Positions 8,486 through 63,964 of a stretch of 64,000 nucleotides of DNA are shown in pieces. Position 1 is the first letter of the stretch, and each line of letters starts with the position of its first letter. The stretch lies in IMG/VR virus record IMGVR_UViG_3300042887_005170; one strand, 5' to 3'. Both the position numbers and the translations under genes were made by a program. This DNA is from an uncultured virus (IMG/VR IMGVR_UViG_3300042887_005170) (Duplodnaviria > Heunggongvirae > Uroviricota > Caudoviricetes). The notes under the pieces are model-generated. The model was not told the DNA's origin and searched no databases. It was given only the letters and a program-made list of their open reading frames with translations.

Positions 8486-9154
8486 TTAGTTCCGCCAGAG
8501 GCCCACTACCTGGTACAGTGAGCCGTCAGACGTGAGCGAAATTATATTACCCGCATCTCTAATCGCTGCGGTGTATTCATCATAGGCTATGATTATGGGC
8601 ACAGGGGAAAATCCGCTGGAGGTCGACTGCTTGTAAGCCAGCGAAAGCGCGCTCACGGGCGAGGCAATTACTGGGCTGTTCGCAATACAAAAAACCTCTG
8701 TATACGTAGCTGCCCCTTCCGTCCCAGGCGGGACTACATTTCCCTGCGCAGGAAAGCCTGTGCAAAAAATGCCGGTGTCTGCTGTGTAACCAGAAAGAAC
8801 CTTTCCCTGGATGGGGATGGTAGCCAAAGTGCCGCCGCCGGGCGCTGTGGTTAAGAAGTCGACGCCGAGCGTATTTGCGGCTCCTGCCGAAAACTGCAAG
8901 TTTGTGTTCGTGTCGGTAGCTCGAAGTTCAAGAATGGCGGGGATATCGCTCGTGAACAATAGTAGATCAACGTAGCTCACATTATTCAGGTCTATGGTCG
9001 GAGTAATAGTATCCGGGGTAGTGAAGTTGCAGACTGTCGCCGTAAATGCGGACCAAGGGTAAAGCCCCTGCGCGTTCGCCGTTCCGGGCGATGCCGGGTC
9101 GGGGTAACGTTTGTAGGCGGTGCCGCCGAGGATTTTTTCTGTGCCTTGTGACAT
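8486..9154 (-). CDS. RYPDP-family beta-rich protein (paralog 1), putative structural
   Basis: LGGTAYKRYPDP..GLYPWS...YTAAIRDAGN..YQVVGLW. Confidence 0.85.
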   Translation of the reverse strand: MSQGTEKILGGTAYKRYPDPASPGTANAQGLYPWSAFTATVCNFTTPDTITPTIDLNNVSYVDLLLFTSDIPAILELRATDTNTNLQFSAGAANTLGVDFLTTAPGGGTLATIPIQGKVLSGYTADTGIFCTGFPAQGNVVPPGTEGAATYTEVFCIANSPVIASPVSALSLAYKQSTSSGFSPVPIIIAYDEYTAAIRDAGNIISLTSDGSLYQVVGLWRN

Positions 9155-9163
9155 TTTTAAACC

Positions 9164-9847
9164 TTAGCTGGTCCAGAGGCCTACGACCTGGTAGAGTGAC
9201 CCATCGCTCGCTTTTATTATGTTACCAGCATCCCTGATGGCCTCTGTGTAGGATCCATAAAGAATCATTACTGGAACGGGCGCAAAGGCGCTGCTTGCTG
9301 CCTGATCAAACGCGAGCGAAAGAGAGCTGCCGGGCGAGGCTATTACGGAGGAATTACTTAAACAAATAACCTCTGTATAAGTAGCGGCCCCTCCGCCGCC
9401 GCCAGGCACAAGAGATTCGCCCTGCGCAGGAAAGCCTGTGCAAAATACGTCCGCGCTCGGGCCCGTATAGCCGGCTAACACCTGCCCCTGATTAGTTATT
9501 GTTGCTGAGGTAGCCCCGCCTGGGGTCGTGAAAAGCTGTGGATAAGAAAGCGTGTTAGCTGCCGTCGAACTAGCTTGTAGGCTTGTTCCAGTAAGCACGC
9601 CCGTGTCTGTGGTTCTTACCTGCAATATCGCGGGGACATCACTGGTAAACAAAAGAAGATATACGGGGGCGTTTAGGCCTTCGTATGGGTTAGGCTTAGC
9701 CCCAGGCTCCGCGTAATCGCAAAGAGGCGCCTTGAACACAGACCACGGGTAGAGCCCTTGAGCGTTAGCCGTTCCGGGCGATGCCGGGTCCGGGTAACGC
9801 TTATAGGCGGTGCCGCCGAGGATTTTTGTTGTGCCTTGTGTGGCCAC
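9164..9847 (-). CDS. RYPDP-family protein (paralog 2)
   Basis: Same N- and C-terminal motifs. Confidence 0.85.
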   Translation of the reverse strand: MATQGTTKILGGTAYKRYPDPASPGTANAQGLYPWSVFKAPLCDYAEPGAKPNPYEGLNAPVYLLLFTSDVPAILQVRTTDTGVLTGTSLQASSTAANTLSYPQLFTTPGGATSATITNQGQVLAGYTGPSADVFCTGFPAQGESLVPGGGGGAATYTEVICLSNSSVIASPGSSLSLAFDQAASSAFAPVPVMILYGSYTEAIRDAGNIIKASDGSLYQVVGLWTS

Positions 9848-9902
9848 GCTTAGCTCCAGTTCGTGTTACTATCTTTAGCCGTTGGCTTTAAGGGCGGCAT
9901 TG

Positions 9903-10613
9903 TTACAGAGGGGCTAGAGGGAACCAAAGACCCACTACCACATACGAAACGGATGTGAACGCGCCGACAGGATCGGCGCAAGTTATCACATTATTGTTGG
10001 CTTTGATAGCGTCTGTGTAGTCAGTGCTTTTGAGGATGATGGGGGTGACACCCGTTCCGGTCTTCGATACAGGGAAGCTCTTTCGCGCGTCGCTCCCGGA
10101 GATTGGTGAATTTATTACGGGCCCGTTGGCTAGGGCCTCGACAAACAGGGCGTAATCATCCGGCGGAGGCTCGATGGGGACAAATAAGTACAAATACACC
10201 AGGAAGCCGGTGCAGTAAACATCGCTAGCGGCTCCGGTGTAGCCTTTAGCAACCTCGCCGAAAGTATTAAGTTCTACATTAGTGGTGCCGCCCGGCTGCG
10301 TAACAAGACCTTGCACCCCTAGCTCGAATGACAGTACGGCATCACCGTCTGAGTAGTAGAAGGGGCCGCCGGCATCGAGCCCCGCTCTAACGATAGAAGG
10401 CGCGTCGCTCAAGAACAATAATCCGTTGCTTTTTCCTACATCCGCAATCCCGGTAGCCTGAATGACCCCGTCCCCGTCAAACTGACCGAGCCGCGCCCGG
10501 AACGAGCTCCAGGGATAAAGCCCGTACTCGTTGGGGAGGTTGCTCACATTCGGGTCCGGGTAACGCTTATAGGGCGTCCCGCCGAGGATTTTTTCTGTGC
10601 CTTGTGTGGCCAT
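9903..10613 (-). CDS. RYPDP-family protein (paralog 3)
   Basis: Same motifs. Confidence 0.85.
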   Translation of the reverse strand: MATQGTEKILGGTPYKRYPDPNVSNLPNEYGLYPWSSFRARLGQFDGDGVIQATGIADVGKSNGLLFLSDAPSIVRAGLDAGGPFYYSDGDAVLSFELGVQGLVTQPGGTTNVELNTFGEVAKGYTGAASDVYCTGFLVYLYLFVPIEPPPDDYALFVEALANGPVINSPISGSDARKSFPVSKTGTGVTPIILKSTDYTDAIKANNNVITCADPVGAFTSVSYVVVGLWFPLAPL

Positions 10614-10630
10614 GCCATGCCTCGTTAAGG

Positions 10631-11293
10631 TTAATAAAAGATGCCCCAGAGGCCAACAATCTGAGCCAACGAGCCATTGCTGTCTAGAATCTGATTGCCG
10701 GCTGCGCGCATCGCCTCTGTGTAGTCTTGGGAGAAGAGTAGGATTGGGAAAGGCGCGATAGAGCTGCCGTAGTTAGGATCGAGGGGCCCTACAGGTCCAT
10801 TAATCACCGGTCCGTTGGCTACTACCATAAGATCGGCAGAGGTGACTGAGCCTTCAGACCCGGAGGACTGGATGTAAAAGTCTACGGGGAAGCCCATTAC
10901 GGGTACATCAAGTCCGCTGCCCGAATAGCCGCTTAATACCTTTCCTTGAACAGGAATCGCGGCAATGCCGCCAGATACGCCGGGGGTCGAGGAGACTAAT
11001 GCTGTGGTCAGCGCATTATTGGCCTGGGTGATCATAACTGTGCGGAAGTTTGCGTCGTTGCAAATAGGGAGGACAATTACGGGTATGTCCGTCGTAAACA
11101 GTATTGATGTAATGTTATTGTCGGTAAGAGTTTCGGCGGGGGAGATAACACCGTCGCGAAAATAGGATAGCCTAGCCTTGAACGCGCTCCACGGAGAGAG
11201 GCCGTAGGCATTGGGCGTGCCGGGTGATGCCGGGTCCGGGTAACGCTTATAGGGCGTTCCGCCAAAAACTTTATCTGTGCCTTGTGTTGCCAC
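10631..11293 (-). CDS. RYPDP-family protein (paralog 4)
   Basis: Same motifs. Confidence 0.85.
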   Translation of the reverse strand: MATQGTDKVFGGTPYKRYPDPASPGTPNAYGLSPWSAFKARLSYFRDGVISPAETLTDNNITSILFTTDIPVIVLPICNDANFRTVMITQANNALTTALVSSTPGVSGGIAAIPVQGKVLSGYSGSGLDVPVMGFPVDFYIQSSGSEGSVTSADLMVVANGPVINGPVGPLDPNYGSSIAPFPILLFSQDYTEAMRAAGNQILDSNGSLAQIVGLWGIFY

Positions 11294-11294: not shown

Positions 11295-12041
11295 CTATGC
11301 CTTAGTCATAAAGTAAACTCCGGCCGCTGCGGCTAAGAGACCCAGGACACCTCCGCCTCCGCCCTTCTTCTTTTCCTTTTCCTCGTCATCAGCCGTGTCG
11401 AGCTTAGCGAAGGCAAAGTTAATCTGTTTGCCTGCCTCAAGCTCTGCAAGCTCCTCGGGCTTAAAGTTTGCCACTGTGGCTGCGACTGGGTCGAAGAACC
11501 CGACCATCTTCGGATCGGAGAACTTTCTTGTTTTCTGATAAACGCCATCGCCCTCTCGAGCGCCTGCAGAGTTTGTGTTACCTTCGGCAGTAATGAAGAC
11601 ATCCGGATCGTTGGGGTCGAGACCCACTACGATCCCTGTGTGACCGAGCGTGTATGCTCCCTTTCTAGCCTGCTTAGCGCCGTCTGCATCTCTAGACTGA
11701 GAGAATACCCAGCCCGGCTTTACTTTGTGGCGCTCCTCAGGGGTCGCATGGTACTCGTCCATGCCTAGCTTCCTCAGCGCGCCAGCGGCTTTGTGATAAA
11801 GACCGACGGCGCCGCCGCCTGCCCACTTAGGCTTTTTCTCCATGCCGAGGCCATTAGTAGTACACCAAGAAACGAAGGCCGCGCACCAGGGGGCGCCGGG
11901 TGGGATGTGAACAACTTTCTGATATTGCTCTACGCGCGCGCCTTTGTTGGAGCCGCCGACCTCGCGGATCTTAGACCCGACCTCGGTCATGGCTGAGTTC
12001 ACGACGGCTTCTCTGCCTTTAGACGTATCGAGCTTAATCAT
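11295..12041 (-). CDS. CHAP-domain peptidoglycan hydrolase with C-terminal membrane anchor
   Basis: PWCAAFVSWC, GHTGIV, EGNTN; tail GVLGLLAAAAGVYFMTKA. Confidence 0.85.
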   Translation of the reverse strand: MIKLDTSKGREAVVNSAMTEVGSKIREVGGSNKGARVEQYQKVVHIPPGAPWCAAFVSWCTTNGLGMEKKPKWAGGGAVGLYHKAAGALRKLGMDEYHATPEERHKVKPGWVFSQSRDADGAKQARKGAYTLGHTGIVVGLDPNDPDVFITAEGNTNSAGAREGDGVYQKTRKFSDPKMVGFFDPVAATVANFKPEELAELEAGKQINFAFAKLDTADDEEKEKKKGGGGGVLGLLAAAAGVYFMTKA

Positions 12042-16054: not shown

Positions 16055-17206
16055 TTACAGTCCCGAAGACCAGCTAGCGTAAGCTGCCTTGTACTTGGGT
16101 ATAGCGCCGATAATGAAGTTCTTATCGCAAGAGGTCAAAGCAGCGTTGGGGTTTGGGACAGTCGTAGAGAGAGCCTCCATGAACTTCTTAAGCTGCGCCA
16201 TATTAGGCTTGCTACCGCGCTCCGTCACGGCTGAGAAGAGCCTAGGAAGGAACTTACAGCCTTCCTTATCGTCAGGTCGAGCGTTCTGGTAATCGGCATA
16301 GGCCTTATTGAGAAGACAGCACCACTTCATGCACTGCTGGCGTGCCGACAGATCGCTGAAATTAGTCGACGTCACAACGTTAATCGAAGCTGCGGAGAGC
16401 TGGCTTGCCATGGCGTTGTAGAGCTGCTTAGTGGCGATACCGTAGGAGGTCATCAGAGAGCTACTGACCTCGACCACTGGCGCGGGCGGCTTATTCGCGT
16501 CCGCGGCCGCCTTGGCTGCGCCAGCGTCGGCCTTATCGGCTGCGGCCTGAGCCTTCGCTGCATCGCTCGGGGCGGGCATTCTCTTTAGGGCTGCAACAAA
16601 GGCGGTGCTATCGTAAGGAGTAATAGGCGTCTTCCAGGAAATAAGGCCCTGAGCCAGTTTGCCGGTAGCGTCTATGTTAGTGAAAGTGAATCCGGATTTC
16701 ACCGTAGGCGCGGCTGCGGCTATGTGTCCGACAAAGGTATTAGCGGGCGCGCCGGATGCATCGACGTAGGTAAACAATCTAGCAAATGAGTTAAGAGCGG
16801 CCTGAGAGTTCGGGCCCCACTTACCGTCGGGCTTGCCGCTGGCTCCAACCCTCAGCCGGACTAGGCCCGATTTAGCCATGTCGAAAGCTCTGTTCTTAGC
16901 CATTTCGCCATAGAACCAGACGAGACGGGTCTGCAGATCAAAGGTCGCCTGGCTAGAGGTGTTAGTAGAGGCGCCTACGGAGGCTCTAGGCTGTTCTCTG
17001 GGCAAGGACTCAATGGGCTGCTCTATGGGGGTCTGCGGAAGAGGCTCGATCACCTGCGTAAGCTGCCTGCCGTAGAGCTGGTCATTAGAGGGTAGCTCTG
17101 CGGCGGCTGCCATTCTGGGACGAATCAAGAAATAGTAGGCTGCTGCGCCAGCGCCTGCTAAGCCAAGCAATAGAATAAGCTTAGTCGTATCTTTATCTTC
17201 CATCAT
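16055..17206 (-). CDS. N-anchored protein with PG-binding-like motif
   Basis: N-terminal TM; LQTRLVWF...PDGKWGPNSQAAL. Confidence 0.75.
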   Translation of the reverse strand: MMEDKDTTKLILLLGLAGAGAAAYYFLIRPRMAAAAELPSNDQLYGRQLTQVIEPLPQTPIEQPIESLPREQPRASVGASTNTSSQATFDLQTRLVWFYGEMAKNRAFDMAKSGLVRLRVGASGKPDGKWGPNSQAALNSFARLFTYVDASGAPANTFVGHIAAAAPTVKSGFTFTNIDATGKLAQGLISWKTPITPYDSTAFVAALKRMPAPSDAAKAQAAADKADAGAAKAAADANKPPAPVVEVSSSLMTSYGIATKQLYNAMASQLSAASINVVTSTNFSDLSARQQCMKWCCLLNKAYADYQNARPDDKEGCKFLPRLFSAVTERGSKPNMAQLKKFMEALSTTVPNPNAALTSCDKNFIIGAIPKYKAAYASWSSGL

Positions 17207-17218
17207 ATCTCCTTAAAA

Positions 17219-17731
17219 CTAAATATCGACATTAACGCCGAGTGCCTTTCCGAAAGCTCTGAGATCATAATTAGACATTCTGCCGTCGTACTTAGAAAGA
17301 GCGACTGCTGCCTTGTCCTGATCTGCTAACTCTGAAAGACCGCCACAAGCGCCGGCCATGTATTTCATAAAAGTGTAATTGTTTAAATTAGAAGCGTCAA
17401 CGTTTTCTGCTGCTTTAACTAAAAGATCGTGAAAGCTGTGGGTGGCCGCCATCGTATTGGGGCCCCACTGTCCGTCATATCCACCGCTAGACTTCGTTCT
17501 AACTCGGGTAAGGCCAGATTTAGATTCGCCTACACCGGGTATGCCGGCGATCATGTCACAGAACCAGTTAAGCTTAGTCTGAAGCGCCTTCATTCCGTCC
17601 TGCCCTAGCGGCGGCGCGTCCATGCTAGTAATCTTCTTCTTAATTGCTGCATATGCCGGCTTACCGAAAGCAAGACCTAAGCCTGCCCCAACGGCGGCTG
17701 ATATTAATATTTTTTTAGTCCTGTCGTCCAT
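17219..17731 (-). CDS. N-anchored protein with PG-binding-like motif (paralog)
   Basis: LQTKLNWF...SGLTRVR...DGQWGPNTMAA. Confidence 0.75.
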   Translation of the reverse strand: MDDRTKKILISAAVGAGLGLAFGKPAYAAIKKKITSMDAPPLGQDGMKALQTKLNWFCDMIAGIPGVGESKSGLTRVRTKSSGGYDGQWGPNTMAATHSFHDLLVKAAENVDASNLNNYTFMKYMAGACGGLSELADQDKAAVALSKYDGRMSNYDLRAFGKALGVNVDI

Positions 17732-17751
17732 CTAAGCCTCTGGCTGTTAGT

Positions 17752-18555
17752 TTATTGGGGCCAACTGCTGGGATAAGGAGGCGGCGCATTTTTATAGACT
17801 GGGTTTTCTTTATATTTTTCATAGGCGTTTTTTATGATTTCCCAATCTCTGGGGGCAGGTGGAACTCCGGCCGTATTCTTCATATGATTGATTAGTTTAT
17901 TAGAAAAAGCGCCTGTGAGATTGGGGTCTGACTGAGAATAGAGTCTATATATCGTATAGTCCTCTGGTCTGCCTCTACCCATAATTTCTGATGTGGGGAT
18001 ATAGTTAGATCTCTCTGGTTTAATGTCGGACATGGTCCACAGCCCCTTAACAACACCGAATCCAAGTGCATTCGGGTGAGGGGCTTTATATCCTAATAGG
18101 ACATCGTCACCCACAATAAGCCTGGCACGCCAGAGAATGTTTAGCCACAGCCAAAATGCCTTAAGGGTATTGGCGTCTGCCTGGCCATTGACCACCAATT
18201 TAGGTGTATTTATGCCTTCAGCGCCTTTGTATTTTAAACTATCAAAAAACCAATTAAGGTGCGCTTGGACCAGCTTTGCGCTTTCTTTGGGCATATACCC
18301 GGCTTCCGTCTCAGGGGCAGGACTCATAAGAGTCTTGCCTGCTGGTGTGACCACAGGGTTAGCGACCCTGGTGTCCACGAGCATCGCCTGTTTGCCCGGG
18401 TTCTTAAGCCCATCTCCGAAGATATTACTTAGTGAATCGGCTGACTTATCCCCGGCGCCTGTATCAGCAGTACCATCCCCGCTCTTCTTAAATATCAAAT
18501 ACAGGGCAGCCGCGCCGCCGGCTATATAAAGTATATTTTTATATTTGCTGTCCAT
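17752..18555 (-). CDS. N-anchored protein with divergent PG-binding-like motif
   Basis: VQAHLNWF...LVVNGQADANTLKAF; RVANP motif. Confidence 0.7.
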   Translation of the reverse strand: MDSKYKNILYIAGGAAALYLIFKKSGDGTADTGAGDKSADSLSNIFGDGLKNPGKQAMLVDTRVANPVVTPAGKTLMSPAPETEAGYMPKESAKLVQAHLNWFFDSLKYKGAEGINTPKLVVNGQADANTLKAFWLWLNILWRARLIVGDDVLLGYKAPHPNALGFGVVKGLWTMSDIKPERSNYIPTSEIMGRGRPEDYTIYRLYSQSDPNLTGAFSNKLINHMKNTAGVPPAPRDWEIIKNAYEKYKENPVYKNAPPPYPSSWPQ

Positions 18556-53069: not shown

Positions 53070-53085
53070 TTAATAGGGAGAAAAT

Positions 53086-53846: not shown

Positions 53847-54295
53847 TGAATGATTACGAAAACTATATTAACAGTATAGCTAAAAAACTCTCAGAGTCCC
53901 CCAACTTTCGTTGGGTGGGCGGAATGCTAGCTATCGGTAGCTCTTCTCCGACAGGGTCGCGCCTTAGGTTCAGAATAACGAATGAGCCGGCATCAATCGG
54001 GCGAGATAACTACCCGGTAATCACAGACGCAGCGACGGCAGGCTGCCTGCTTAAGCTAATTCGAGAGATCTATAGCGATCCTACAGCGACTCTGACCTGT
54101 AATGATATTTTAAATCAGCGGCAGTGGATCTGCTCCGGCGTCGAAAATACCTACTCTAGAGCAGCCTCTGAGGCCGAAGCTCTCGCATTCGCTTTATTAG
54201 GAGCACAAGCAGAGCATGTTGAACCTACGGAAGACGACTCGTCGTATGATGATATCCCCGGTCCTATGCCGGGAAGAAACGGTTTCCCTTTCTAG
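53846..54295 (+). CDS. WxWxPGM/DPAT family (paralog 11)
   Basis: NFRWVGGM...TDAATAGCLL...SEAEALAFAL. Confidence 0.8.
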   Translation: MNDYENYINSIAKKLSESPNFRWVGGMLAIGSSSPTGSRLRFRITNEPASIGRDNYPVITDAATAGCLLKLIREIYSDPTATLTCNDILNQRQWICSGVENTYSRAASEAEALAFALLGAQAEHVEPTEDDSSYDDIPGPMPGRNGFPF

Positions 54296-55119: not shown

Positions 55120-55192
55120 GCGCCCATAACTCAGTTGGTAGAGTAGCGGACTTTTAATCCGTCAGTCGATGGTTCGAGTCCATCTGGGCGTA
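55120..55192 (+). tRNA. tRNA-Lys(TTT)
   Basis: GCGGA-CTTTTAA-TCCGT arm; canonical D and T loops. Confidence 0.93.
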
Positions 55193-55201
55193 CTAGAGTC
55201 A

Positions 55202-55275
<74 letters not shown>

Positions 55276-55369
55276 CTAAGAATATTACAGCCGGCGCCTG
55301 GATGTGCATTTAGTTATCTACTAAGATATGCACCCCACGCCGGCTGTTTTTATTGCCTCTGGAGCTTTT

Positions 55370-56545
55370 ATGAAATTTAAAAACGTTCAAGCAGATCAAT
55401 TTTTCGGCAACAGGTATAATAAAATTTTTTCTCCTGAGGAAATAGAAACCTTTATTAGGAGTAAAAAAAATTTTAATAAAAATAAAAAGTTTATGACCGC
55501 CAGAGAGACTTCTTTTATAAAATCTGGCGACGAGTTTTATAAAAAAGGATTTTTGCCAGAAAATGAAAATTATAAGCCTTTTTATGGCAAATTAAGCAGA
55601 GACCAAGAAGAGGAAGGGCTACCTAGGATATACAGGTACTCCCCCAATATTTTAACATCTGTCTTCCCTATCGATTCATTTTTAGCGATTCAAAATAAGA
55701 ATAATTTATTTGAAAACTTTGATTTTATATTAAATTTATTTAATGGAGTCGCTCTTAAAATTTTACCTATTTTGGGAAATTATTCGAATAACCAAAGAGC
55801 TATAAAAAAAATAGAAAAGATAAAGCCGCTCGTTGCTAATGACACTATCCCTCTCTTAAGCCCCGCCGACACAGAATATACAAAAGCCAGGTTGGCTGAT
55901 GTGGAAAAAATTCTGTATTGTTGGGACGGCGAAGAAAATACCGGAAATACACCAGCAGAAGGCTCACCTTTTCCACATGCTTTTTGTGAAGCTCGGCAGC
56001 TTCTTTATTGTATAACTGAGTTTGAGCGTGTTATATCATACGAAATAGTACAAGATGTCTACAATCGAGCGGAAACATTAGACGAGCTGGAAGAATCGCA
56101 AAAGCGACACGCAGAGAGAACTATAGCGCGAGCTATAGAGTATTTTATATCTTTTCTCTGGTATCTGGAGATGTGCCTATTATCTATAGACGCTGATCCG
56201 CAAATAGTCTCAGACATAATAAATGAAATTGTAATAGAATCTGCATGCAGCGCTTATATGATGACTAATATCTATGCTCACCCAGATTTAGTGGATCTAG
56301 TAAGCAAGACTGGACTTAGTTACAGCGTAGACCGCACAGATTCTGCCCTCACGGCATCAGCTATCGCTAAGCGAGTATCAGACTGCGTAAACGATGTAGC
56401 GGCGCTTACCGGAGTGCCCCTTTCAGGGACATGTGGGTATATAATAAACCGCGCTATATTCAGAAACACCCACACAGAAGATATTTTAGATATGGTAGAC
56501 GTCTGCGTCAAAGACTGTATAGACATCGCAGATGGCGGCCTATAA
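55370..56545 (+). CDS. AT-rich protein with the shared C-terminal domain
   Basis: GLSYSVD...AIAKRVSDC..DVAALTGV...DILDMVDVCVKDCIDIADG. Confidence 0.78.
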   Translation: MKFKNVQADQFFGNRYNKIFSPEEIETFIRSKKNFNKNKKFMTARETSFIKSGDEFYKKGFLPENENYKPFYGKLSRDQEEEGLPRIYRYSPNILTSVFPIDSFLAIQNKNNLFENFDFILNLFNGVALKILPILGNYSNNQRAIKKIEKIKPLVANDTIPLLSPADTEYTKARLADVEKILYCWDGEENTGNTPAEGSPFPHAFCEARQLLYCITEFERVISYEIVQDVYNRAETLDELEESQKRHAERTIARAIEYFISFLWYLEMCLLSIDADPQIVSDIINEIVIESACSAYMMTNIYAHPDLVDLVSKTGLSYSVDRTDSALTASAIAKRVSDCVNDVAALTGVPLSGTCGYIINRAIFRNTHTEDILDMVDVCVKDCIDIADGGL

Positions 56546-56561: not shown

Positions 56562-56963
56562 ATGAGCTACGCAAAACACATCAATAAAGGCATTATTTTA
56601 GCCATAGACGACATGCCGGAGAGATACGTTAAGCTCTCCGATATGCTCAAGAGCGTAGGGATTGTCACCGTTTGCGTGCAGCACCCGATCGCAGCAGAGA
56701 CAATTCTGCGAAGCGACTGCGTATGCGGTATTCTTTTAGATCACGATATGCCGCACTGGGACGGGCAATATTACGCGCGAGAGATCTTGAGCCGTTACAG
56801 TAGACCGCCTGTTTGCGTAAGCAGCGCTAACCCTTGGGGCGCTGATAAAATTGAACAAATTTTATTGTCTCAGGGTCGCGCACCTGCTAAAATATCCGCA
56901 ATCCGCAGTAACGCCCCCGAACTCTGGTATAGATGGGTGTTACTAAACGCATTCCCACGGTAA
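56562..56963 (+). CDS. Stand-alone receiver-like domain (cyclic-phosphate-processing REC type)
   Basis: LAIDDMPER, ILLDHDM, SSANPWGA. Confidence 0.75.
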   Translation: MSYAKHINKGIILAIDDMPERYVKLSDMLKSVGIVTVCVQHPIAAETILRSDCVCGILLDHDMPHWDGQYYAREILSRYSRPPVCVSSANPWGADKIEQILLSQGRAPAKISAIRSNAPELWYRWVLLNAFPR

Positions 56964-56965
56964 AA

Positions 56966-57418
56966 ATGGCAATCTTCGTTTTTAAAGACTATTCCGCCCC
57001 TGATAAGACGCTGGATAAGCAGCACAGGACCTTTACTCCCGGGCAGAGCGGAGGCCAGGCAGCCGGCGACAACTCCGACTATGGCAGAGAGTCTAAAAAC
57101 TTTAAGCAGACTAGCTATAGAATCAGGCAAGAGGCACCCTCTTATAAAGACTCCTCCCCCGGAGCCTCTAACAGCCAGGGCCTAGCTGGCGATCTTACTC
57201 CGCGCCAGTTCGAAGTCTTCAGACACATGCTAGCTTTCCAGGATGAGCACGGCCGACCGCCTACTCAGATGGAGCTTAGCACCCGTCTGGGCATGAAATC
57301 AGAGCAGGGTGTTAAAGCCCACCTGGCGATTTTGGAAGCGAAGGGCTACATTGTGGCCGGCCAGAAATTCGGACACAGAAACAAGATGGCCATGTGGCCA
57401 GGCTCAGACAGGGGCTAG
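56966..57418 (+). CDS. LexA-like winged-HTH protein
   Basis: LTPRQFEVF...HGRPPTQMELSTRLGMKS..GV.AHL..LE.KGYI. Confidence 0.82.
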   Translation: MAIFVFKDYSAPDKTLDKQHRTFTPGQSGGQAAGDNSDYGRESKNFKQTSYRIRQEAPSYKDSSPGASNSQGLAGDLTPRQFEVFRHMLAFQDEHGRPPTQMELSTRLGMKSEQGVKAHLAILEAKGYIVAGQKFGHRNKMAMWPGSDRG

Positions 57419-58075: not shown

Positions 58076-58615
58076 ATGTCTTACATTCCCCCTAAAGCCA
58101 ACAAAGGCCAAGTTGCACTACTGGCCCTTCTGATCCCTGGCGATCTTTGCGCCTACTACAACATTGGCGGAGACGATCTTAAGAAAGCCCTGATTCTAAT
58201 TAAGCAGTATTGCGGCATGCCCGAGATTGGGGCGAGCTGGCGCAAGCAGGTTCAGTTCTCTCCTCCGCCCGGAGCCGCTGGCGGTATGCCTGGTGGTATG
58301 CCTGGCGGTATGCCCGGATCGCCTTTCGGCGGTTTTGGTCTCGGCAGCTTCTCTTACGCCGGCTCACCTCCTTTTGGTGGTTTAGGCGCCTATTCGCTCC
58401 CCAACGAGTCGCTTCTTCGCGAGGCAGTTATCACTCTCCTGACCGCTGTTTTCCTCTCTCCGGAAGGGCCCTTCACGCTCACTAAGCCGCTGCCGATCAG
58501 ACGGCAGTTCGCAGAGATGATGGGCGGTAACCTTAACGACTTCGTTGAGTGCCTGCGTATTGTGGAGAAGGATTTTAACCTTCTCTCCTCTCCTTATGAC
58601 GCGCGCCCCCGGTAA
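58076..58615 (+). CDS. Hypothetical protein with GGMP/GFG low-complexity insert
   Basis: Paralog of the next gene. Confidence 0.75.
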   Translation: MSYIPPKANKGQVALLALLIPGDLCAYYNIGGDDLKKALILIKQYCGMPEIGASWRKQVQFSPPPGAAGGMPGGMPGGMPGSPFGGFGLGSFSYAGSPPFGGLGAYSLPNESLLREAVITLLTAVFLSPEGPFTLTKPLPIRRQFAEMMGGNLNDFVECLRIVEKDFNLLSSPYDARPR

Positions 58616-58634
58616 TAGCTAATAGAGGTACCTC

Positions 58635-59342
58635 ATGGCCACTAATAGACTTAGAGGAACTAAAGGGGGGCAGAGAGGTCTTGAGTACCTCCTTACGCCC
58701 GCTAACTACATACTATCTCAGCGCCCCAATGACGATGACTTAGGGAAAGCACTTAATGTTATTCGTTTTTATACGGATAACAAGGATCAGGGCAGGGCCT
58801 GGAGAAGCTTCGCGAGCGGCATCGAGCGCGTAAACTTTAAGCCACCTGGCGGCTTCGATGACACAGAGTATGTCTACGACAGAGTCATCTACGGCAATGA
58901 AGATTTACTCAGAGAATGCGCCGCCGTTATGATCAAAAGTATTTTTGGTGTTGACTATAAAAATCCACCTGACGAGCCGACTCCCCCTCCCTTCACCCCG
59001 CAGCCCGGCCACCACGGCATGCCTCCTGGATTTGGTCCGGGCGCTTATGTGCGAGGGGCCTCACCATTTCAGCACCCATTTAACTATCACCAAGGCGCAG
59101 CTTTCGCCGCAGGCGCTGGAGTGCCCCCGCATTTTTCTTACGGCCCGCGGCCCGTGCCCTACATGGATAAGCTCGATCTCCGCGCCCCGTTCAATGAGAC
59201 GGTGCCCTACGAACAGAAGAGAGCTCTCGCTAAATACCTCGGTCTTCAGATCGCCCCAATGGTGGATAGCTGGCAGGCTATTGAGAAGGACTTTGGATTC
59301 CCCGAAGTCCCCTACTATGCCGACCCAAATAACAGAAGCTAA
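58635..59342 (+). CDS. Hypothetical protein with Pro/Gly/Phe-rich insert
   Basis: Paralog of the previous gene (DDL.KAL..I..Y...G..WR; NE.LLRE; EKDF....PY). Confidence 0.75.
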   Translation: MATNRLRGTKGGQRGLEYLLTPANYILSQRPNDDDLGKALNVIRFYTDNKDQGRAWRSFASGIERVNFKPPGGFDDTEYVYDRVIYGNEDLLRECAAVMIKSIFGVDYKNPPDEPTPPPFTPQPGHHGMPPGFGPGAYVRGASPFQHPFNYHQGAAFAAGAGVPPHFSYGPRPVPYMDKLDLRAPFNETVPYEQKRALAKYLGLQIAPMVDSWQAIEKDFGFPEVPYYADPNNRS

Positions 59343-59351: not shown

Positions 59352-60023
59352 ATGCCCCAGAAAGTACTCGGCGGAAAGCCCTACAAGCGGTATCCCGATC
59401 CCAACGTAAGCAATCTCCCGAACGAGTACGGTCTGTATCCGTGGAGTGTTCTCTACGCACACCTGTCCTACATTGACGATGCTGGCGCCGTGCAGAACAC
59501 CAGTGGGATTACCAACCTCTCGACGACGACGGCACAACTGCTGCTGTTCATGTCGGACATCCCCGTACTTGGGCAGATGAAGTGCTACCACACGGACGCC
59601 ACCAACTCTCCCCGGCTCAACGATCTGAGAAACGAGGTCAGTGCCCCGTTCCTTGTGACGACCATCGGCGGCGCAACGGCTGTTACTGTGGACATTGGCG
59701 AGGTCGCCGTAGGCTACACGGGGCCATCGCGTGCGGTTTTCTGCACGGGCTTTCCGGCCTCGTCGCTGTTCAAGGTCGCCGGAAACAACGCGCAGACGAC
59801 TGACGAGGCTGCGGTGCTTGTGTGGGCAAACGGCGCGACACTCAATGGGCCAGTGAGCCAGAACAAAGACGAAGGCAGCACAATCGTTCCTCAGCCCATC
59901 ATTTTGTGGGCAGAACAGTACGCGGCCTCTATTCCGACCAACGACAACATCTTTACCGATACAGCGGGCAAGATATGGCTCGTGGTCGGACTCCACGATG
60001 TCGAGCAGCCGGCGCCGCCCTAA
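59352..60023 (+). CDS. RYPDP-family protein (paralog 6)
   Basis: YKRYPDPNVSNLPNEYGLYPWS...VVGL. Confidence 0.85.
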   Translation: MPQKVLGGKPYKRYPDPNVSNLPNEYGLYPWSVLYAHLSYIDDAGAVQNTSGITNLSTTTAQLLLFMSDIPVLGQMKCYHTDATNSPRLNDLRNEVSAPFLVTTIGGATAVTVDIGEVAVGYTGPSRAVFCTGFPASSLFKVAGNNAQTTDEAAVLVWANGATLNGPVSQNKDEGSTIVPQPIILWAEQYAASIPTNDNIFTDTAGKIWLVVGLHDVEQPAPP

Positions 60024-60040
60024 GCCGTAATAGGTAATCC

Positions 60041-60910
60041 ATGGCGCAGAAAACCCTAGCCGGCACCCCCGCAATCCGTTACCCCGATCCGCTCGTTCGG
60101 CGGGTTAACCCTAACGGCACGCAGCCCTACACTGCATATCGCGCGTCTCTTTTTTACTTCCTAAGCGACAGCGCCTACGTCGTGCTATCGGCACCACCAG
60201 AATTTCTTTTTGTCGAACTGCTGTTGTTTGGCGCTGACTATGCGGTGCAGGTGGCTGGGACGCAGGAATTTACCGGCTACTACAATTCCCCTACTTATGA
60301 AGGCGAGATATTCGACGCGGCAGGCGCACCCATCCCATTCAGGGATTTAGCGCTACCACTAGGCGGGTTCCCATCCAATCCAGGCGTAGAGACAGTAAGC
60401 ACCATTCTCACAGACGCGCCGCCCGTGTCGTACAAGAAGATTGCTACAGGCAAAACAGCGACCAACGGCGTTACGGTCAGCGGCTTCCCCCATCTCTCTA
60501 TTATTCCATCTCGGAACCTGTGGCAGACGCCCGCCGGAGACACCGGCGAACGCGCTAGCTATCTTGTTACTTATGACGTCATTCTAAACGGCGCGACAGT
60601 GGACGGCCCTGCGCTGTTCCTCAGTCAGGGTGGCGGCGGCGGCACCCTTCCCATCATCCTATGGGAGCCAGACCTTACACAAAAAATTGTGGACGATGGG
60701 TACATCGTTGACGTTCTCGGCGACGGCACTGCGGTCTTTGATGTGGTCGGCCTGTGGGCATCAGCAGGTTATTCACCCCTAGGCCCCGGCATTGGCGCTC
60801 GCTCTTTTGGCGCACCTCCGACCATTGCGCCCACATCACCCCTCTCTTATATTTCACCCGCTATGGCAGAAGCGGCCGCCGCCTACGCCGCCCGAGTTAA
60901 AAACAGATAA
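60041..60910 (+). CDS. RYPDP-family protein (paralog 7)
   Basis: LAGTPAIRYPDPLVR...DVVGLW plus C-terminal extension. Confidence 0.85.
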   Translation: MAQKTLAGTPAIRYPDPLVRRVNPNGTQPYTAYRASLFYFLSDSAYVVLSAPPEFLFVELLLFGADYAVQVAGTQEFTGYYNSPTYEGEIFDAAGAPIPFRDLALPLGGFPSNPGVETVSTILTDAPPVSYKKIATGKTATNGVTVSGFPHLSIIPSRNLWQTPAGDTGERASYLVTYDVILNGATVDGPALFLSQGGGGGTLPIILWEPDLTQKIVDDGYIVDVLGDGTAVFDVVGLWASAGYSPLGPGIGARSFGAPPTIAPTSPLSYISPAMAEAAAAYAARVKNR

Positions 60911-61033
60911 TCTAACTACATAAAAACACATATAGTATACTTGTAATAAAGTTATACCGATGTAGTGAAAATACTAAACAACAACTGCGGAATCCCCGCT
61001 AAGATTAACGTCTACGGACAAAGGAGAAAGACA

Positions 61034-61759
61034 ATGGCTGTTAATTACTATATCAATCAGACTGTTCTTGGTGGCACCTCGGCTCCCCGGTACTCGGACC
61101 CGCTCGTTACGGGCGCTCCGAACGCCGATGGCCTCTACCCCTGGAGCTCGTTCCGCGCCCGTCTTGGCACGATCGCTGCCGGCGCGTTCGTCCCGACCGT
61201 CGGTACGACCCTCGACGCCGGCGATACCATCAACCTGCTCCTCTTCACGAGCGACGTGCCCGCGGGCGGCTCGCTTGTCGAGACGCCGGCTGCAGCCGCT
61301 ATCGTGACTCAGGGCCTGCTCGCCCCGACCACCGCGGTCGGCGGCGCTGGCGCCCTGGCCTTCTTCAAGACGACCTCGACGGGCGGCACGAACGTAACCG
61401 TCTCTGCCGGCCAGGTCGGCGTTGGTTATGTCATCACCGGCGCGGCCGCACCTAACGCAGCCATCAGCACCACCGGCTTCCCGGCGACCGTCGGCGTCGG
61501 CGTTAATGGCGCTGCCGATACTTTCGATCTTCTTGTGACCGCGAATGGCGCGACCATCGCCTCGCCCGTTAGCACGCTTAACTTCGGCGCGCTTACCGCC
61601 GATGCCGCTACCTGCGGTTTCCTCCCGATCATTCTGGACTACGCGGTCTACACCCAGGCGATCCGCGATGCCGGTAATGTCTACACCGCCACCGAAGCCA
61701 CAACGCTCGGCGTTAGATACCTGGTTGTCGGCCTTTACAGCCTCACCCCTGCCGCCTAG
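61034..61759 (+). CDS. RYPDP-family protein (paralog 8), probably the most highly expressed
   Basis: AAGGAG RBS, strong C/G-ending codon bias, own terminator. Confidence 0.87.
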   Translation: MAVNYYINQTVLGGTSAPRYSDPLVTGAPNADGLYPWSSFRARLGTIAAGAFVPTVGTTLDAGDTINLLLFTSDVPAGGSLVETPAAAAIVTQGLLAPTTAVGGAGALAFFKTTSTGGTNVTVSAGQVGVGYVITGAAAPNAAISTTGFPATVGVGVNGAADTFDLLVTANGATIASPVSTLNFGALTADAATCGFLPIILDYAVYTQAIRDAGNVYTATEATTLGVRYLVVGLYSLTPAA

Positions 61760-61784
61760 TAATTAAAATCCGCCTAGCGGATTT

Positions 61785-61811
61785 AAAGGCGCCCGAGAGG
61801 GCGCCTTTTTT
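61785..61811 (+). terminator. Intrinsic terminator (preceded by a second hairpin at 61766-61784)
   Basis: AAAGGCGCCC-GAGA-GGGCGCCTTTTTT. Confidence 0.85.
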
Positions 61812-61861
61812 GCCTAAAAGTAGAGAGCCTTAAAACACTAAGCTCATACTAGGAAAAGCCA

Positions 61862-62518
61862 ATGCCAGCTTACACATCTAGAAAGACCCTTGGTACTCTT
61901 CCTGTTATTAGACAGCCTCTAGCAGCCAGCACCGGCTCAGCTAACTACGCCGGTACTTACGGCTGGAGCGCGTTTAGAGCTAGATTAGGTCGTTGCACGA
62001 ACACGACTTTCACCACCACTCTCGCAGCGGCAATCACGGCAGGTCAGACGGTTAACCTTCTCCTTTTCACTACGGATGTGCCGGCTATCGGCCTAGCATT
62101 CGATGTCGGCACTCCCGGCGCGATCGGGATCACCGGTTTAGTGAGCTCGGCACTCTCCGTGCCCTTTCTTGTCACGACTAGCGGCGGTGGCGTACCGGCA
62201 ACGGCGTTAGTTGGCGAGGTTAATGACGGGTATGTCGGCACAGTGAAGACCAGCGGCTTTAGCGCTAAATTTTTTAGCACGGTGGCGGCAGCTACGAGTA
62301 CGGCCGTTGATCTGGCTGTTATTTCAAATAGCACTCAGGGCATCACGACGCCAATTAGCTTGTCTGACTGGGACGCACCCTCCACGACAGCTTCCGGCAA
62401 CGTGCCCGTTCTTATTCCGGCAACCAGCTACACCAGCGTAATAAAGGCTGCCGGAAATCAGATCGTTACGGCCACCGGCGTTGTTTATCAGGTAGTCGGC
62501 CTCTACAGCGTCGTCTAA
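61862..62518 (+). CDS. RYPDP-family protein (paralog 9, divergent N-term)
   Basis: GTYGWSAFRARLG...NLLLFTTDVPA...YQVVGLY. Confidence 0.85.
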   Translation: MPAYTSRKTLGTLPVIRQPLAASTGSANYAGTYGWSAFRARLGRCTNTTFTTTLAAAITAGQTVNLLLFTTDVPAIGLAFDVGTPGAIGITGLVSSALSVPFLVTTSGGGVPATALVGEVNDGYVGTVKTSGFSAKFFSTVAAATSTAVDLAVISNSTQGITTPISLSDWDAPSTTASGNVPVLIPATSYTSVIKAAGNQIVTATGVVYQVVGLYSVV

Positions 62519-62537
62519 ACAACCAGAGTGAGCTAAA

Positions 62538-63263
62538 ATGGCCGTAAATTACTACGCAAATCAGACCGTCCTCGGCGGAACTTCCTACCCCCGCTACCCC
62601 GACCCGCTCGTTACGGGCGCGCCCAACGAGTACGGTCTCTACCCGTGGAGTAATTTTAGGGCGCGGTTTGCGACTTATAACGGCACGCTTGTTGATTCGG
62701 CCATCGATCTTAACACCGGCTCCGGCGGCGCTAACCGGGTTAACCTTCTCCTCTTCACGAGTGATATCCCAGCCGTCGGCTATATTGCCCCTGCGGCAAC
62801 TGGTCTTTCTGTTAGCCCTGTCGCCCCTGCCGCCAAGGTCGGCGTGGCCGGAACGCCAGCTTTCTTCAAGGCCACCCCCGGCGGCACCGATGTCACCGTC
62901 GCGGCCGGCCAAGTCGGCGTTGGCTACAGCTACAATGCCGCCGCCACTACCGACGCCAACAAAAACATCTACGTTGCGGGTTTCCCCGCCGTCACGACCT
63001 CCAGCGCTACCACTGACGCAGAACTCTGGCTCTGGACCAACAGCCCCAACATCTGCTCGCCCGTCAGCTTTCAGAACTGGGATTTGCAGGCCGGACTTCC
63101 CACCGTCGCAGAGCGGGCGGCTTCCGGCGCCTTGCCGATTGTCCTCCGCTACTCGGACTACACGCAGGCGATCCGCGACGCCGGTAACATCATCGTTAAC
63201 ACCGTTGCCCCGATTGGCGCGACCTACCAGGTCGTCGGACTCTTCAGCCGCTTCGCGGTGTAA
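62538..63263 (+). CDS. RYPDP-family protein (paralog 10)
   Basis: QTVLGGTSYPRYPDPLVTGAPNEYGLYPWS. Confidence 0.87.
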   Translation: MAVNYYANQTVLGGTSYPRYPDPLVTGAPNEYGLYPWSNFRARFATYNGTLVDSAIDLNTGSGGANRVNLLLFTSDIPAVGYIAPAATGLSVSPVAPAAKVGVAGTPAFFKATPGGTDVTVAAGQVGVGYSYNAAATTDANKNIYVAGFPAVTTSSATTDAELWLWTNSPNICSPVSFQNWDLQAGLPTVAERAASGALPIVLRYSDYTQAIRDAGNIIVNTVAPIGATYQVVGLFSRFAV

Positions 63264-63298
63264 TATCTAGAGAGACCTAATTTTATAGGAAAATACCT

Positions 63299-63964
63299 AT
63301 GGCCGTTACTTATTATAATCAGACCGTCCTCGGCGGAACCTCCAACCCCCGCTACCCCGACCCGCTCGTTACGGGCGCGCCCAACGAGTACGGTCTTTAC
63401 CCGTGGAGCGCATTTCGCGCTCGCGTCAGCAATATTGTAGATGGCGAGGTTGTAAGTCTAAACGTAGCAATCAGCTCCCCGGAGATTCTTCTTTTCATCA
63501 GCGATGAGCTAGCGACTGGCTACTTCCAGGATGTAACTACAGCCGCCGTTGAGGCCCCGCTTGCGCCGGCGCCTTCCGCCAGCTTCTTCCTTAGTGCGCC
63601 TGCCGGCAGTGTTGTCACCCGCCCCGCGGGCCAGGTCGCGACTGGCTATGTTGCGACGGGCTCGGCAAATATTGCGACTACAGGCTTCACCGCCACTGGC
63701 CCCGCAAGCATCACGGTCGATGCCACTAACCTTATCGTATTTGCCAACTCGCCTAACATCTGCTCGCCGATCAGCTTCCAGAACTGGGATACCGTTGATA
63801 CTGCAACGGCCAAGGCCTCTGGCGCGCTCCCGATTATCCTTCTCTACAGCTCTTACACGCAAGCTATTAGAGACGCTGGTAATATCTTTGTCGCCACCGC
63901 CGGCGCCGCCACGGGCGCGACCTATCAGGTAGTCGGCCTTATTAATCCCGACACAGGCGGCTAA
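63299..63964 (+). CDS. RYPDP-family protein (paralog 11)
   Basis: QTVLGGTSNPRYPDPLVTGAPNEYGLYPWS. Confidence 0.87.
   Translation: MAVTYYNQTVLGGTSNPRYPDPLVTGAPNEYGLYPWSAFRARVSNIVDGEVVSLNVAISSPEILLFISDELATGYFQDVTTAAVEAPLAPAPSASFFLSAPAGSVVTRPAGQVATGYVATGSANIATTGFTATGPASITVDATNLIVFANSPNICSPISFQNWDTVDTATAKASGALPIILLYSSYTQAIRDAGNIFVATAGAATGATYQVVGLINPDTGG

Follow-up and report, generated by a model that had tools for sequence, protein, structure and literature searches.

Eleven paralogous, predicted beta-sandwich proteins in an uncultured freshwater phage

A 64-kb stretch of DNA from an uncultured freshwater (lake-water) phage, which we call the window, contains 11 paralogous genes at three loci and on both strands. 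What kind of protein do these genes encode, and what might a phage do with eleven versions of it? We found that the genes belong to a single, undescribed family, and that the paralogy is old and maintained; the proteins are predicted to be single-domain beta-sandwiches. As to function, we tentatively propose that each copy forms a homotrimer on the outside of the virion.

An old family of eleven copies

We compared a profile of the family to the window's stop-to-stop open reading frames (six frames, at least 30 amino acids). There were 11 matches (E = 1.9e-65 to 1.9e-43) and no twelfth copy at E values of up to 10. An earlier note, made from the DNA sequence, had listed eleven genes; all 11 are present at those coordinates and strands, and the profile adds no more. 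(Only 36 bases of the window are left after the last copy, 63299-63964.) The copies and the elements near them are as follows; P numbers are relatives from outside the window.

8486-9154, minus strand: family copy, 222 amino acids (aa), short "MxxQGT..LGGT.YKRYPDP" subgroup (alignment and profile); nearest outside relative 90% identical
9164-9847, minus strand: family copy, 227 aa, GTG start (alignment and profile); shares a clade with 8486-9154 and P0003 (support 99)
9903-10613, minus strand: family copy, 236 aa; outside sister P0004 (support 100)
10631-11293, minus strand: family copy, 220 aa, GTG start; outside sister P0002 (support 100); immediately 3' of a CHAP hydrolase gene (11295-12041)
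28162-28959, minus strand: family copy, 265 aa, long "LAGTPAIRYPDP" subgroup (alignment, profile, and tree); immediately 3' of a membrane-anchored lysozyme-like gene (28984-29778)
59352-60023, plus strand: family copy, 223 aa, opens a six-gene array; outside sister P0001 (support 99)
60041-60910, plus strand: family copy, 289 aa, long subgroup; its C-terminal tail is basic and rich in Ala; outside sister P0225 (support 95)
61021-61026, plus strand: ribosome-binding site AAGGAG, 7 nt 5' of the ATG at 61034
61034-61759, plus strand: family copy, 241 aa, candidate abundant member (pLDDT 85.7, predicted homotrimer)
61766-61812, plus strand: two hairpins; a U run comes after the second, which is GC-rich, as in an intrinsic terminator (folding energy)
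61862-62518, plus strand: family copy, 218 aa, most divergent N-terminal arm (LGTLPVIRQP) (alignment and profile)
62538-63263, plus strand: family copy, 241 aa, effective number of codons (ENC) 44.7, GC3 0.74; outside sister P0005 (support 99)
63299-63964, plus strand: family copy, 221 aa, ENC 39.8, final gene in the window (alignment and profile)

A full-length alignment of the 11 copies (A1) has 344 columns, with a mean column identity of 37% and 14 invariant columns. Across A1, identity to the first copy ranges from 27% to 66%. The constant blocks that had been named from the sequence, with variable segments between them, are visible in the consensus: LGGT..RYPDP..GLYPWS.F.A, LLLF.SD.P, G.V..GY, TGFP, ANG..I.SP.S, PIIL...YT.AIRDAGN, and YQVVGL. 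The copies were also said to lack signal peptides and transmembrane helices. This holds for all 11 N-termini, but one protein (61862-62518) is flagged internally: residues 86-104, in a beta-strand region, score 1.76 on the Kyte-Doolittle scale (19-residue window, threshold 1.7).

The family is missing from the collections that we searched. We found no meaningful match to any of the 11 copies in Pfam-A (best E = 0.16) or in PHROGs v4 (one copy hit an unnamed family at E = 0.032), and none of the 11 matched NCBIfam 20 or PADLOC 2.0. A profile from a 150-row alignment (A2) had no matches at E values of up to 10 among 177,635 distinct PDB sequences. Metagenomic relatives fall into 252 representative clusters, and every named one is a "hypothetical protein." One metagenomic contig of 3,332 nt carries five tandem family copies. 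Two family domains are naturally fused in P0055 (556 aa), and P0115 is a fragment of this two-domain type.

In a phylogenetic tree, six of the 11 copies have an outside sister with support of at least 95, and 11 label changes are required for the 11 copies. The expansion is thus an old one: every copy can be paired with an ortholog of its own from outside the window. The positions that vary among the paralogs also tend to vary among close orthologs: the Spearman correlations were 0.50, 0.44, 0.36, and 0.19 for four ortholog groups of 24, 11, 6, and 13 rows, respectively.

A predicted trimer with a conserved arm

We used AlphaFold and the 150-row alignment to model the protein encoded by 61034-61759. 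The predicted structure is an all-beta, single-domain sandwich (pLDDT 85.7, pTM 0.84) with conserved strands and variable loops, in keeping with the sandwich that the earlier note had suggested. Each copy in the window is a single domain of about 200 residues. The N-terminal arm of about 37 residues (GT..RYPDP..GLYPWS.F.A) is highly conserved and yet disordered in the model, with residues 1-19 having pLDDT below 50. The sandwich begins right after it, at about residue 38, and the model has no repeat or coiled segment between the two that could be a shaft.

When three copies were modeled together (the one stoichiometry that we modeled), the prediction was a homotrimer, with ipSAE values of 0.92, 0.92, and 0.93; the best control scored 0.00. 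At least 69% of the contacts agreed between runs, and partner pLDDT was 82-84. Residue 175 contacts its own counterpart in another copy, which makes the predicted assembly cyclic. For comparison, 20 of 30 proteins that were solved as pairs reached the same ipSAE mark, as did one of 23 that were solved as single chains. These counts are a rough guide, since the calibration was made with two copies and with other alignments.

The most conserved parts of the protein are the arm (mean 1.47) and LLLFTSD.P, TGFP, PIIL..YTQAIRDAGN, and VVGL. Most of these lie off the modeled contact surface of the trimer, apart from residue 75 (in LLLFTSD.P) and residues 38-41 (where the arm ends). The interface is no more conserved than the remaining core (1.20 vs. 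1.39, Mann-Whitney p = 0.52). Conservation away from the modeled interface would fit a second binding partner that is shared by the paralogs.

We then compared the model to solved structures. None of 48,161 chains reached Z = 5, and the best Z was 4.2. The jelly-roll fold that had been suggested is a loose likeness only: single jelly-roll capsid proteins scored 2.5-2.8 (P23-77 VP16, 2.8; VP17, 2.5; HHIV-2, 2.7), which is tied with many carbohydrate-binding modules and within the noise of such sandwiches. The other weak matches include a cyanophage A4 capsid chain (9jwb_Z, at the noise level with Z = 3.6, rmsd 4.6, 115 residues aligned), YomS (Z = 3.4), IBDV VP2 (Z = 3.1-3.2), and XepA (Z = 2.5). 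No fibre or spike knob is among the structural hits listed. Neither family models nor structure comparison turned up an enzyme family or an enzyme fold, which the earlier note had named as a result that would count against it. The copies have no beta-helix depolymerase domain from Pfam, and the model is a sandwich rather than a beta-helix. The sole lead to a spike family is a language-model score of 0.80 for PRD1_P5_spike_N, which is under that tool's own bar.

A candidate abundant member

The 61034-61759 copy had been singled out for a strong ribosome-binding site, extreme codon bias, and a dedicated terminator. The ribosome-binding site is there (AAGGAG at 61021-61026, 7 nt upstream of the ATG). 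The ATG at 61034 is a better start than the GTG at 60965 because this site precedes it and the resulting N-terminus lines up with those of the other copies. The codon bias is strong, but "extreme" overstates it: the ENC of 38.7 is the third lowest among 92 ORFs. The gene's GC content is 65%, with GC3 of 0.76, versus 50% GC for the window. (Codon use is also biased in the last two genes of the array.) Two hairpins come after the stop codon, and the second (GGCGCCC-GAGA-GGGCGCC) is followed by UUUUUU, which bears out the terminator. This second hairpin folds at -31 kcal/mol (z = -4.8), and none of 200 shuffles fold as well. A simple terminator scan did not list this site. The product is rich in Ala, Gly, Thr, and Val.

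A contig from a metatranscriptome, representing a relative of this copy, spans 61067-61505 with 29 differences. Across a 6-kb stretch, RNA-library contigs cover only 58113-58868 and 61067-61505, but these could derive from contaminating DNA and are unfit for ranking genes. As for the suggestion that this copy is a major structural protein, it has the marks of a stand-alone, highly expressed gene, to which the RNA library adds a weak hint. We consider it a candidate for high expression. A stand-alone, strongly expressed gene is a better fit to a high-copy shell or decoration protein than to a receptor-binding protein.

Where the proteins might act

The genome looks like that of a phage: it has five tRNA genes, hydrolases of the CHAP and lysozyme-like types, ThyX, and an endonuclease-V-like gene that it shares with aquatic phages. 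From 7.6 to 31 kb, the minus strand codes for at least 12 proteins with membrane anchors, several of which also have cell-wall-binding or hydrolase domains. Another family, of about a dozen small proteins, is also expanded in this genome. We did not recognize capsid, portal, terminase, or tail hallmark genes in the 64 kb, and we therefore cannot assign the arrays to a structural module. Neither IMG/VR nor a set of 50,697 deposited phage genomes yielded a relative of this phage lineage with the queries tried. The whole contig measures 76.7 kb, and family relatives are on contigs of up to 101.8 kb.

Our best explanation, which we put at a little short of an even chance, is that each copy is a homotrimer on the outside of the virion that acts as a binding or decoration module. 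The near-invariant, unstructured arm and a conserved face (PIIL..YTQAIRDAGN and VVGL) would dock every paralog at a common site. The loops between strands, which differ by paralog and by strain, would make contact with the outside world, either to bind host surfaces or to decorate the particle. The 61034-61759 protein would be made in abundance, and the ten others would be variants present in fewer copies. Several observations go against virion-surface trimers. Most sets of receptor-binding genes are not scattered across three loci and both strands. The structural neighbors are all weak (Z of at most 4.2), with no known spike, knob, or decoration fold in support. The window has no hallmark structural gene, and conservation at the interface is not above that of the core.

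Known systems offer partial parallels. In the vertex spikes of PRD1 (P5) and the fibre of adenovirus, an N-terminal tail docks the protein, and the knob is a trimer. Similarly, the family has a predicted trimer after a conserved, unstructured tail rich in Pro and aromatic residues, but it has no shaft or collagen-like repeat, and hhalign gave a probability of just 0.4% against P5. Lambda gpD and the BPP-1 cement protein are trimeric proteins that decorate or cement the capsid. Such proteins are small and abundant, with an N-terminal arm that clamps the shell, much like the predicted trimer and arm here; but they are normally single-copy, and this family has eleven paralogs with strain-variable loops. 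The capsid chain of cyanophage A4 (9jwb_Z), one of the noise-level structural matches, belongs to this comparison as well. The Klebsiella phage PhiK64-1 is reported to have a set of multiple receptor-binding proteins. Another Klebsiella phage, phiKp24, has such a set in its "hyperbranched tail fibers" (PMC9700779). In such sets, one genome encodes roughly a dozen trimeric surface proteins, either paralogs or analogs of one another, which attach by conserved N-terminal parts and presumably widen or vary what the particle binds; the family may be similar in this respect. However, the Klebsiella proteins are large beta-helix depolymerases or fibres, while ours are sandwiches of 218-289 aa with neither shaft nor enzyme domain, and our genes are scattered across three loci, unlike the Klebsiella sets.

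The proteins could instead work inside the infected cell, as accessories to lysis or cell-wall attack, or as diversified binders for host takeover or counter-defence; we think this is unlikely. Two of the three loci are directly downstream of membrane-anchored cell-wall hydrolase genes, and the chance of this is about 0.03 (a rough estimate, given five hydrolase genes among about 92 ORFs), but the largest array (59352-63964) has no adjoining hydrolase. Given the second expanded family, paralog expansion in this genome is not confined to structural genes. XepA and YomS, from Bacillus prophages, are described as oligomeric beta-sandwiches from lytic cassettes, and XepA as a pentamer that resembles single jelly-roll capsid proteins (PMC6834076, PMC8812541). 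They are similar to the family in size, in being all-beta sandwiches, in oligomerizing (as predicted for the family), and, for two of the three loci, in lying beside lysis genes. But their Z scores (2.5-3.4) are at the noise level, there is no sequence similarity, and both are pentamers, whereas the prediction here (with three copies modeled) is a trimer. Also, no family member matched PADLOC, and 61034-61759, with its composition, its codon bias, and a terminator to itself, is more like the genes of abundant structural proteins than those of regulators.

Or the family might build the shell itself, as one major and several minor sandwich subunits of a non-HK97 capsid in a large phage with an internal membrane. 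We consider this quite improbable. It would parallel the single and double jelly-roll capsids of PRD1-like and P23-77-like viruses, and large jelly-roll viruses have capsid gene sets with one major protein and paralogs. The gene at 61034-61759 resembles a major structural gene, a trimer is predicted, the many membrane-anchored proteins recall membrane-containing phages, and HK97 capsid, portal, terminase, and tail genes were not detected in the 64 kb. P0055 (and the P0115 fragment) has the two-domain arrangement that defines double jelly-roll capsid proteins. (In PRD1 P3-type capsids, each chain has two jelly rolls and the trimers are pseudo-hexameric; the window's copies are single-domain, predicted trimers.) VP16, VP17, HHIV-2, and IBDV VP2 are among the weak structural matches, but at noise-level Z scores that are tied with dozens of carbohydrate-binding modules, and hhalign probabilities against PRD1 P3, P5, and P31 were 0.4%, 0.4%, and 0.1% (a weak comparison, with single-sequence templates). 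Furthermore, the window lacks a packaging ATPase of the FtsK/A32 type. Known membrane-containing jelly-roll phages have genomes several times smaller than this contig of 76.7 kb and the relatives' contigs of up to 101.8 kb, and at least 12.7 kb outside the window could carry a normal tailed-phage module. Loops that are hypervariable between close strains are also atypical of shell proteins. A more specific version is a long shot: the eleven genes (one major, ten minor) would be the capsid-building set of a freshwater lineage of about 80-100 kb with an internal membrane and no HK97 capsid, using a sandwich with no close solved relative, and P0055 would capture the transition from single- to double-domain capsomers that has been proposed for jelly-roll viruses. 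If the capsid reading were true, this would be a new capsid lineage.

With a confident model, no solved neighbor at Z of 5 or above, and 252 metagenomic clusters, the family is a good target for structure determination. It is also a good target for annotating the dark portion of freshwater viromes because the family is broad and its phage lineage has no detected relative in the searches above. If the copies are virion-surface trimers, then they would be a compact route to a varied binding repertoire, with one small scaffold and one docking arm. Each genome would carry eleven versions, with loops that change between strains, where other phages rely on large fibres or depolymerases.

An eleven-member family and its relatives

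The earlier note had described eleven beta-rich proteins with constant blocks separated by variable segments. All eleven ORFs are where it placed them, and an end-to-end alignment (A1) confirms that they form one family. A1 has 344 columns, 14 of them invariant, with an average column identity of 37%; identity to the first copy ranges from 27% to 66%, and the constant blocks are present in the consensus. When we compared a profile of the family to the six-frame translation of the window, we found exactly 11 matches (E from 1.9e-65 to 1.9e-43) and no further copies at E up to 10. The family was also said to lack signal peptides and transmembrane helices. This holds for the N-termini, none of which were flagged by a hydrophobicity scan, but one copy has an internal segment that was flagged at threshold.

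In the four-gene array on the minus strand, a spacer of about 50 nt is near-identical at 8434-8485 and 9848-9902 (..AGTAACACGAACTGGAG.TAAGC, then GTGGCC). One occurrence lies upstream of 9164-9847 and the other upstream of the next gene, 7876-8433, which is unrelated. The shared spacer looks like the footprint of the tandem duplication that built this array.

The family belongs to no curated family, has no sequence relative in the PDB, and a full-text literature search with its motif strings returned no relevant paper. Searching 1.84 billion representative proteins with a family profile, we obtained 252 matches at E up to 0.001, of which 127 reach 1e-10 and 52 reach 1e-30. A 90%-cluster search gave 140 matches. 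Among the 120 listed, precomputed Pfam domains are absent, and those with a name are all called "hypothetical protein." Several relatives lie together on one contig, and one metagenome contig of 3,332 nt carries five tandem copies. One metagenomic relative, P0055 (556 aa), joins a long-type family domain, a proline-rich linker, a second family domain that lacks the arm (the conserved N-terminal 37 or so residues), and a basic C-terminal tail; P0115 is a fragment listed with this fusion. A dedicated search for longer (fused) proteins found none, which is weak evidence by the tool's own account.

The closest outside relatives differ for each window copy and are often 80-100% identical to it, against 27-66% among the paralogs of the window. 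To the 11 copies we added 139 outside proteins for a tree of 150 rows; they were drawn from 246 by keeping lengths of 200-300 aa, dropping near-duplicates, and trimming to a total of 150. On this tree, the window copies require 11 label changes, and 6 of the 11 have an outside sister with support of 95 or more. The copies at 8486-9154 and 9164-9847 form one clade with the metagenomic protein P0003 (support 99), and a clade of 63 rows has no window member. Because the copies have their own outside relatives and because of this tree pattern, the expansion is, judging from the sequences, old and maintained rather than a recent burst.

Other collections gave little. We found no match for the 61034-61759 copy, or for a 619-aa neighbour, with tblastn against 50,697 phage records, and no relative in IMG/VR for three alignments (A1, A3, and A5 of large neighbouring proteins). 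A scan of genome contigs with a smaller alignment reported one relative but gave no locus for it. A pattern scan of metagenome contigs returned just two short contigs (L001 and L002), from a collection that evidently lacks the contigs of several JGI-sourced relatives having that pattern.

Predicted fold, trimer and variable loops

We modelled the copy at 61034-61759. With the 11 paralogs as the alignment, pLDDT was 78.4; with 150 rows, it was 85.7 (pTM 0.84). The modelled domain, about 200 residues long, is all-beta: it has ten to twelve strands, and its one short helix is at YTQAIRDAGN. The arm comes before it, with residues 1-19 below pLDDT 50. Foldseek found no match in the PDB or BFVD at E of 0.001 or better. 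When 48,161 representative chains were aligned to it exhaustively, none reached a Z of 5. The best was 4.2 (8pxt_A; rmsd 4.0 with 86 residues aligned), and since the aligner's note gives a best Z of 7-8 as typical even without a clear match, the model is unusually isolated. (The best Z was 3.4 for the first model, from the 11-paralog alignment, and 3.6 when Foldseek's top 986 chains were re-examined.) The weak matches are a mixture of carbohydrate-binding modules, C-terminal sandwiches of glycosidases, YomS, a capsid chain of cyanophage A4, and single jelly-roll capsid proteins. Of the proposal of a possibly jelly-roll-like beta-sandwich, the model supports the sandwich, but the matches say "generic sandwich" and nothing beyond. 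The ESM Atlas models a family protein poorly (pLDDT 0.27), and its matches were all unnamed viral clusters, at a score of 0.90 that was equalled by 4-10 of 100 shuffled proteins.

The multimer prediction that the earlier note had called for supports a homotrimer of the 61034-61759 protein, three copies being the only stoichiometry modelled. With the 150-row alignment, the three copies score ipSAE of 0.92, 0.92, and 0.93, and three unrelated replacement proteins, run as controls, score 0.00. Contact agreement across the trimer runs is at least 69%, with pLDDT of 82-84, and the contacts are cyclic, with residue 175 against residue 175. Conservation in the predicted interface does not exceed that of the remaining core (1.20 vs. 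1.39, p = 0.52), and the interface takes in the variable segments 84-100 and 179-195. Such variable segments in the modelled interface would fit self-pairing of each paralog.

The most conserved parts are the arm, LLLFTSD.P, TGFP, PIIL..YTQAIRDAGN, and VVGL. These lie mostly off the predicted interface, but residue 75 of LLLFTSD.P and residues 38-41, where the arm ends, belong to it. Part of the conservation of the blocks is surely due to the fold core. For an unstructured arm whose proline and aromatic residues are near-invariant, a shared binding partner would be the best explanation. As for the loops, changes within orthologs fall in the segments that vary between paralogs (after the first strand, at about 82-100, on both flanks of TGFP, at 175-196, and before the last strand). 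The Spearman correlations of within-ortholog with between-paralog entropy are 0.50, 0.44, 0.36, and 0.19. By these comparisons of sequences, the loops are still changing between strains while the scaffold and the arm are fixed.

Expression signals and genome setting

The strong expression signals ascribed to 61034-61759 were borne out. It has AAGGAG 7 nt upstream of its ATG, the third-lowest ENC (38.7) among 92 ORFs, and two hairpins after its stop codon, the second of which is GC-rich and followed by a run of U (-31 kcal/mol, z = -4.8, and 0 of 200 shuffles equally stable). A simple terminator scan missed the hairpin at 61787 (7 sites in the scan vs. 6.2 expected). The gene is 65% GC, vs. 50% for the window. 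Codon bias is also seen in 63299-63964 (ENC 39.8) and 62538-63263 (ENC 44.7), and the minus-strand copies are without it (ENC 54-60). We considered TATAGTA, which occurs upstream of 61034 and after 63964, as a promoter, and dropped it because it is not enriched (8 found vs. 7.0 expected).

Contigs assembled from a freshwater metatranscriptome library cover only two ranges of a 6-kb stretch, 58113-58868 and 61067-61505; a lack of cover elsewhere is no evidence of silence. The 61067-61505 contig, inside 61034-61759, shows 29 differences over 439 nt and hence derives from a related strain. We consider this library to be weak support, as contigs do not allow genes to be ranked and some may stem from carried-over DNA. 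The other contigs (58113-58437, which is identical, and 58469-58868) are over a gene pair at 58076-59342 (plus strand), just upstream of the six-gene array; these two genes encode paralogs of 179 and 235 aa with low-complexity middles rich in Gly, Pro, and Met. DNA contigs with joints such as 59401 to 63398 might indicate rearrangement of the array, but we rejected this and read them as cross-paralog assembly effects, because the sides are only 23-24 letters and lie within the conserved N-terminal block.

The window is phage-like and very dark. The features discussed below are:

Features of the window (coordinates, strand, description)
4514-7612, minus: pentapeptide-repeat protein of 1,032 aa
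11295-12041, minus: CHAP protein with C-terminal anchor
16055-18555, minus: three paralog-like proteins with N-terminal anchor and peptidoglycan-binding-like segment
25635-26606, minus: pentapeptide-repeat protein fused to AAA_33 kinase-like domain
28984-29778, minus: lysozyme-like protein with N-terminal membrane anchor
30249-30725, minus: Cys-rich repeat protein with anchor
39715-40452, plus: protein with two LexA-type DNA-binding domains
40893, 41368, 44847, 45626, 46730, 47531, 48166, 48819, 50407, 51512, 53813 (positions), plus: members of a second expanded family
56933-57418, plus: third LexA-type domain, overlapping the end of a receiver-domain-like ORF (56562-56963)
24328-24495, 48713-48795, 55120-55276: five tRNA genes (Met-CAT, Ile-TAT, Tyr-GTA, Lys-TTT, Arg-TCT; ARAGORN)

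Rfam confirms four of the tRNA genes, the exception being the Tyr gene. A-ending codons are read by three of the five tRNAs (Ile-TAT, Lys-TTT, and Arg-TCT), and the codon-biased genes are GC3-rich, which suggests that the host has a higher GC content than the phage. Each of the 24 sequencing runs listed with the 58-64 kb stretch is labelled as a lake-water or freshwater metagenome; in 6 of them at least half of the sampled words are present, and 2 of these 6 may be the source. The window also encodes ThyX, an endonuclease-V-like gene, a DNA methylase, and a small serine recombinase. The nearest deposited relatives of the endonuclease-V-like gene and of part of the 1,032-aa protein are from aquatic phages (of Roseobacter, Caulobacter, Pelagibacter, and cyanobacteria); residues 554-682 of the latter are common to phages of Roseobacter, Pelagibacter, and Synechococcus.

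There are other expanded families. The second one (40893-54295, plus strand) comprises about a dozen proteins of 105-160 aa, with mutual blastp matches at E of 1e-5 to 1e-19 and no match in Pfam or PHROGs. (The LexA-type protein at 39715-40452 comes first in the plus-strand block, past a 1-kb gap.) At 33407-38662 (minus strand) are three large, mostly helical paralogs of 530, 580, and 619 aa that are 26-32% identical. They share a conserved acidic C-terminal domain (..ETV..A.R....D.VD.A.N.CYD..FG), which also ends a 405-aa protein at 55328-56545 (plus strand). We found no family, PDB, or IMG/VR relative for these paralogs; PDB sequence searches with four neighbours gave no E below 0.14, and the ESM Atlas returned nothing for the 580-aa protein.

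Possible roles of the family

The earlier note had proposed virion shell, spike, or receptor-binding subunits. The reading we lean towards, at a little under an even chance, is that the proteins are homotrimers on the virion surface, a location that we infer. The common arm would dock the trimers on the particle, the loops would contact host surfaces or decorate the particle, and 61034-61759 would be the abundant member. Alternatively, they would form the capsid shell of a non-HK97, membrane-containing phage. In its favour are the many membrane proteins, in which the minus strand from 7617 to 31966 is unusually dense (at least a dozen membrane-anchored proteins, several with cell-wall-binding or hydrolase domains). 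Also in favour of a shell are the natural two-domain fusion P0055 and the missing hallmarks of tailed phages: with Pfam or PHROGs, we found no terminase, portal, HK97 capsid, tail sheath or tube, polymerase, or helicase in the 64-kb window. However, window proteins are recorded on a contig of 76,711 nt, and relatives on contigs of up to 101,791 nt (contigs of 85-102 kb carry P0185, P0173, P0216/P0057, and P0225), so a substantial part of the genome lies outside the window. The likeness to jelly-roll capsids is at noise level, and profile comparisons with PRD1 gave probabilities of 0.1-0.4%. We regard a shell as quite improbable.

A role outside the virion, such as accessory proteins of a lysis cassette like XepA and YomS, seems to us unlikely, if less so than a shell. 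The window has five genes for cell-wall hydrolases (three with CHAP domains, an SLT transglycosylase, and a lysozyme-like protein), and two of the three family loci come directly after membrane-anchored hydrolase genes. XepA is also a sandwich that resembles jelly-roll capsid proteins, according to PMC8812541 and PMC6834076.

If the proteins are virion-surface trimers, they would not be the first of their kind. Many paralogous trimeric surface proteins in one phage are known from sets of large fibres and depolymerases, as described in PMC9700779. Compared to the sets described there, what would be new in this family is a small scaffold with no shaft, an arm shared by all copies, its own copy number, and an isolated fold.
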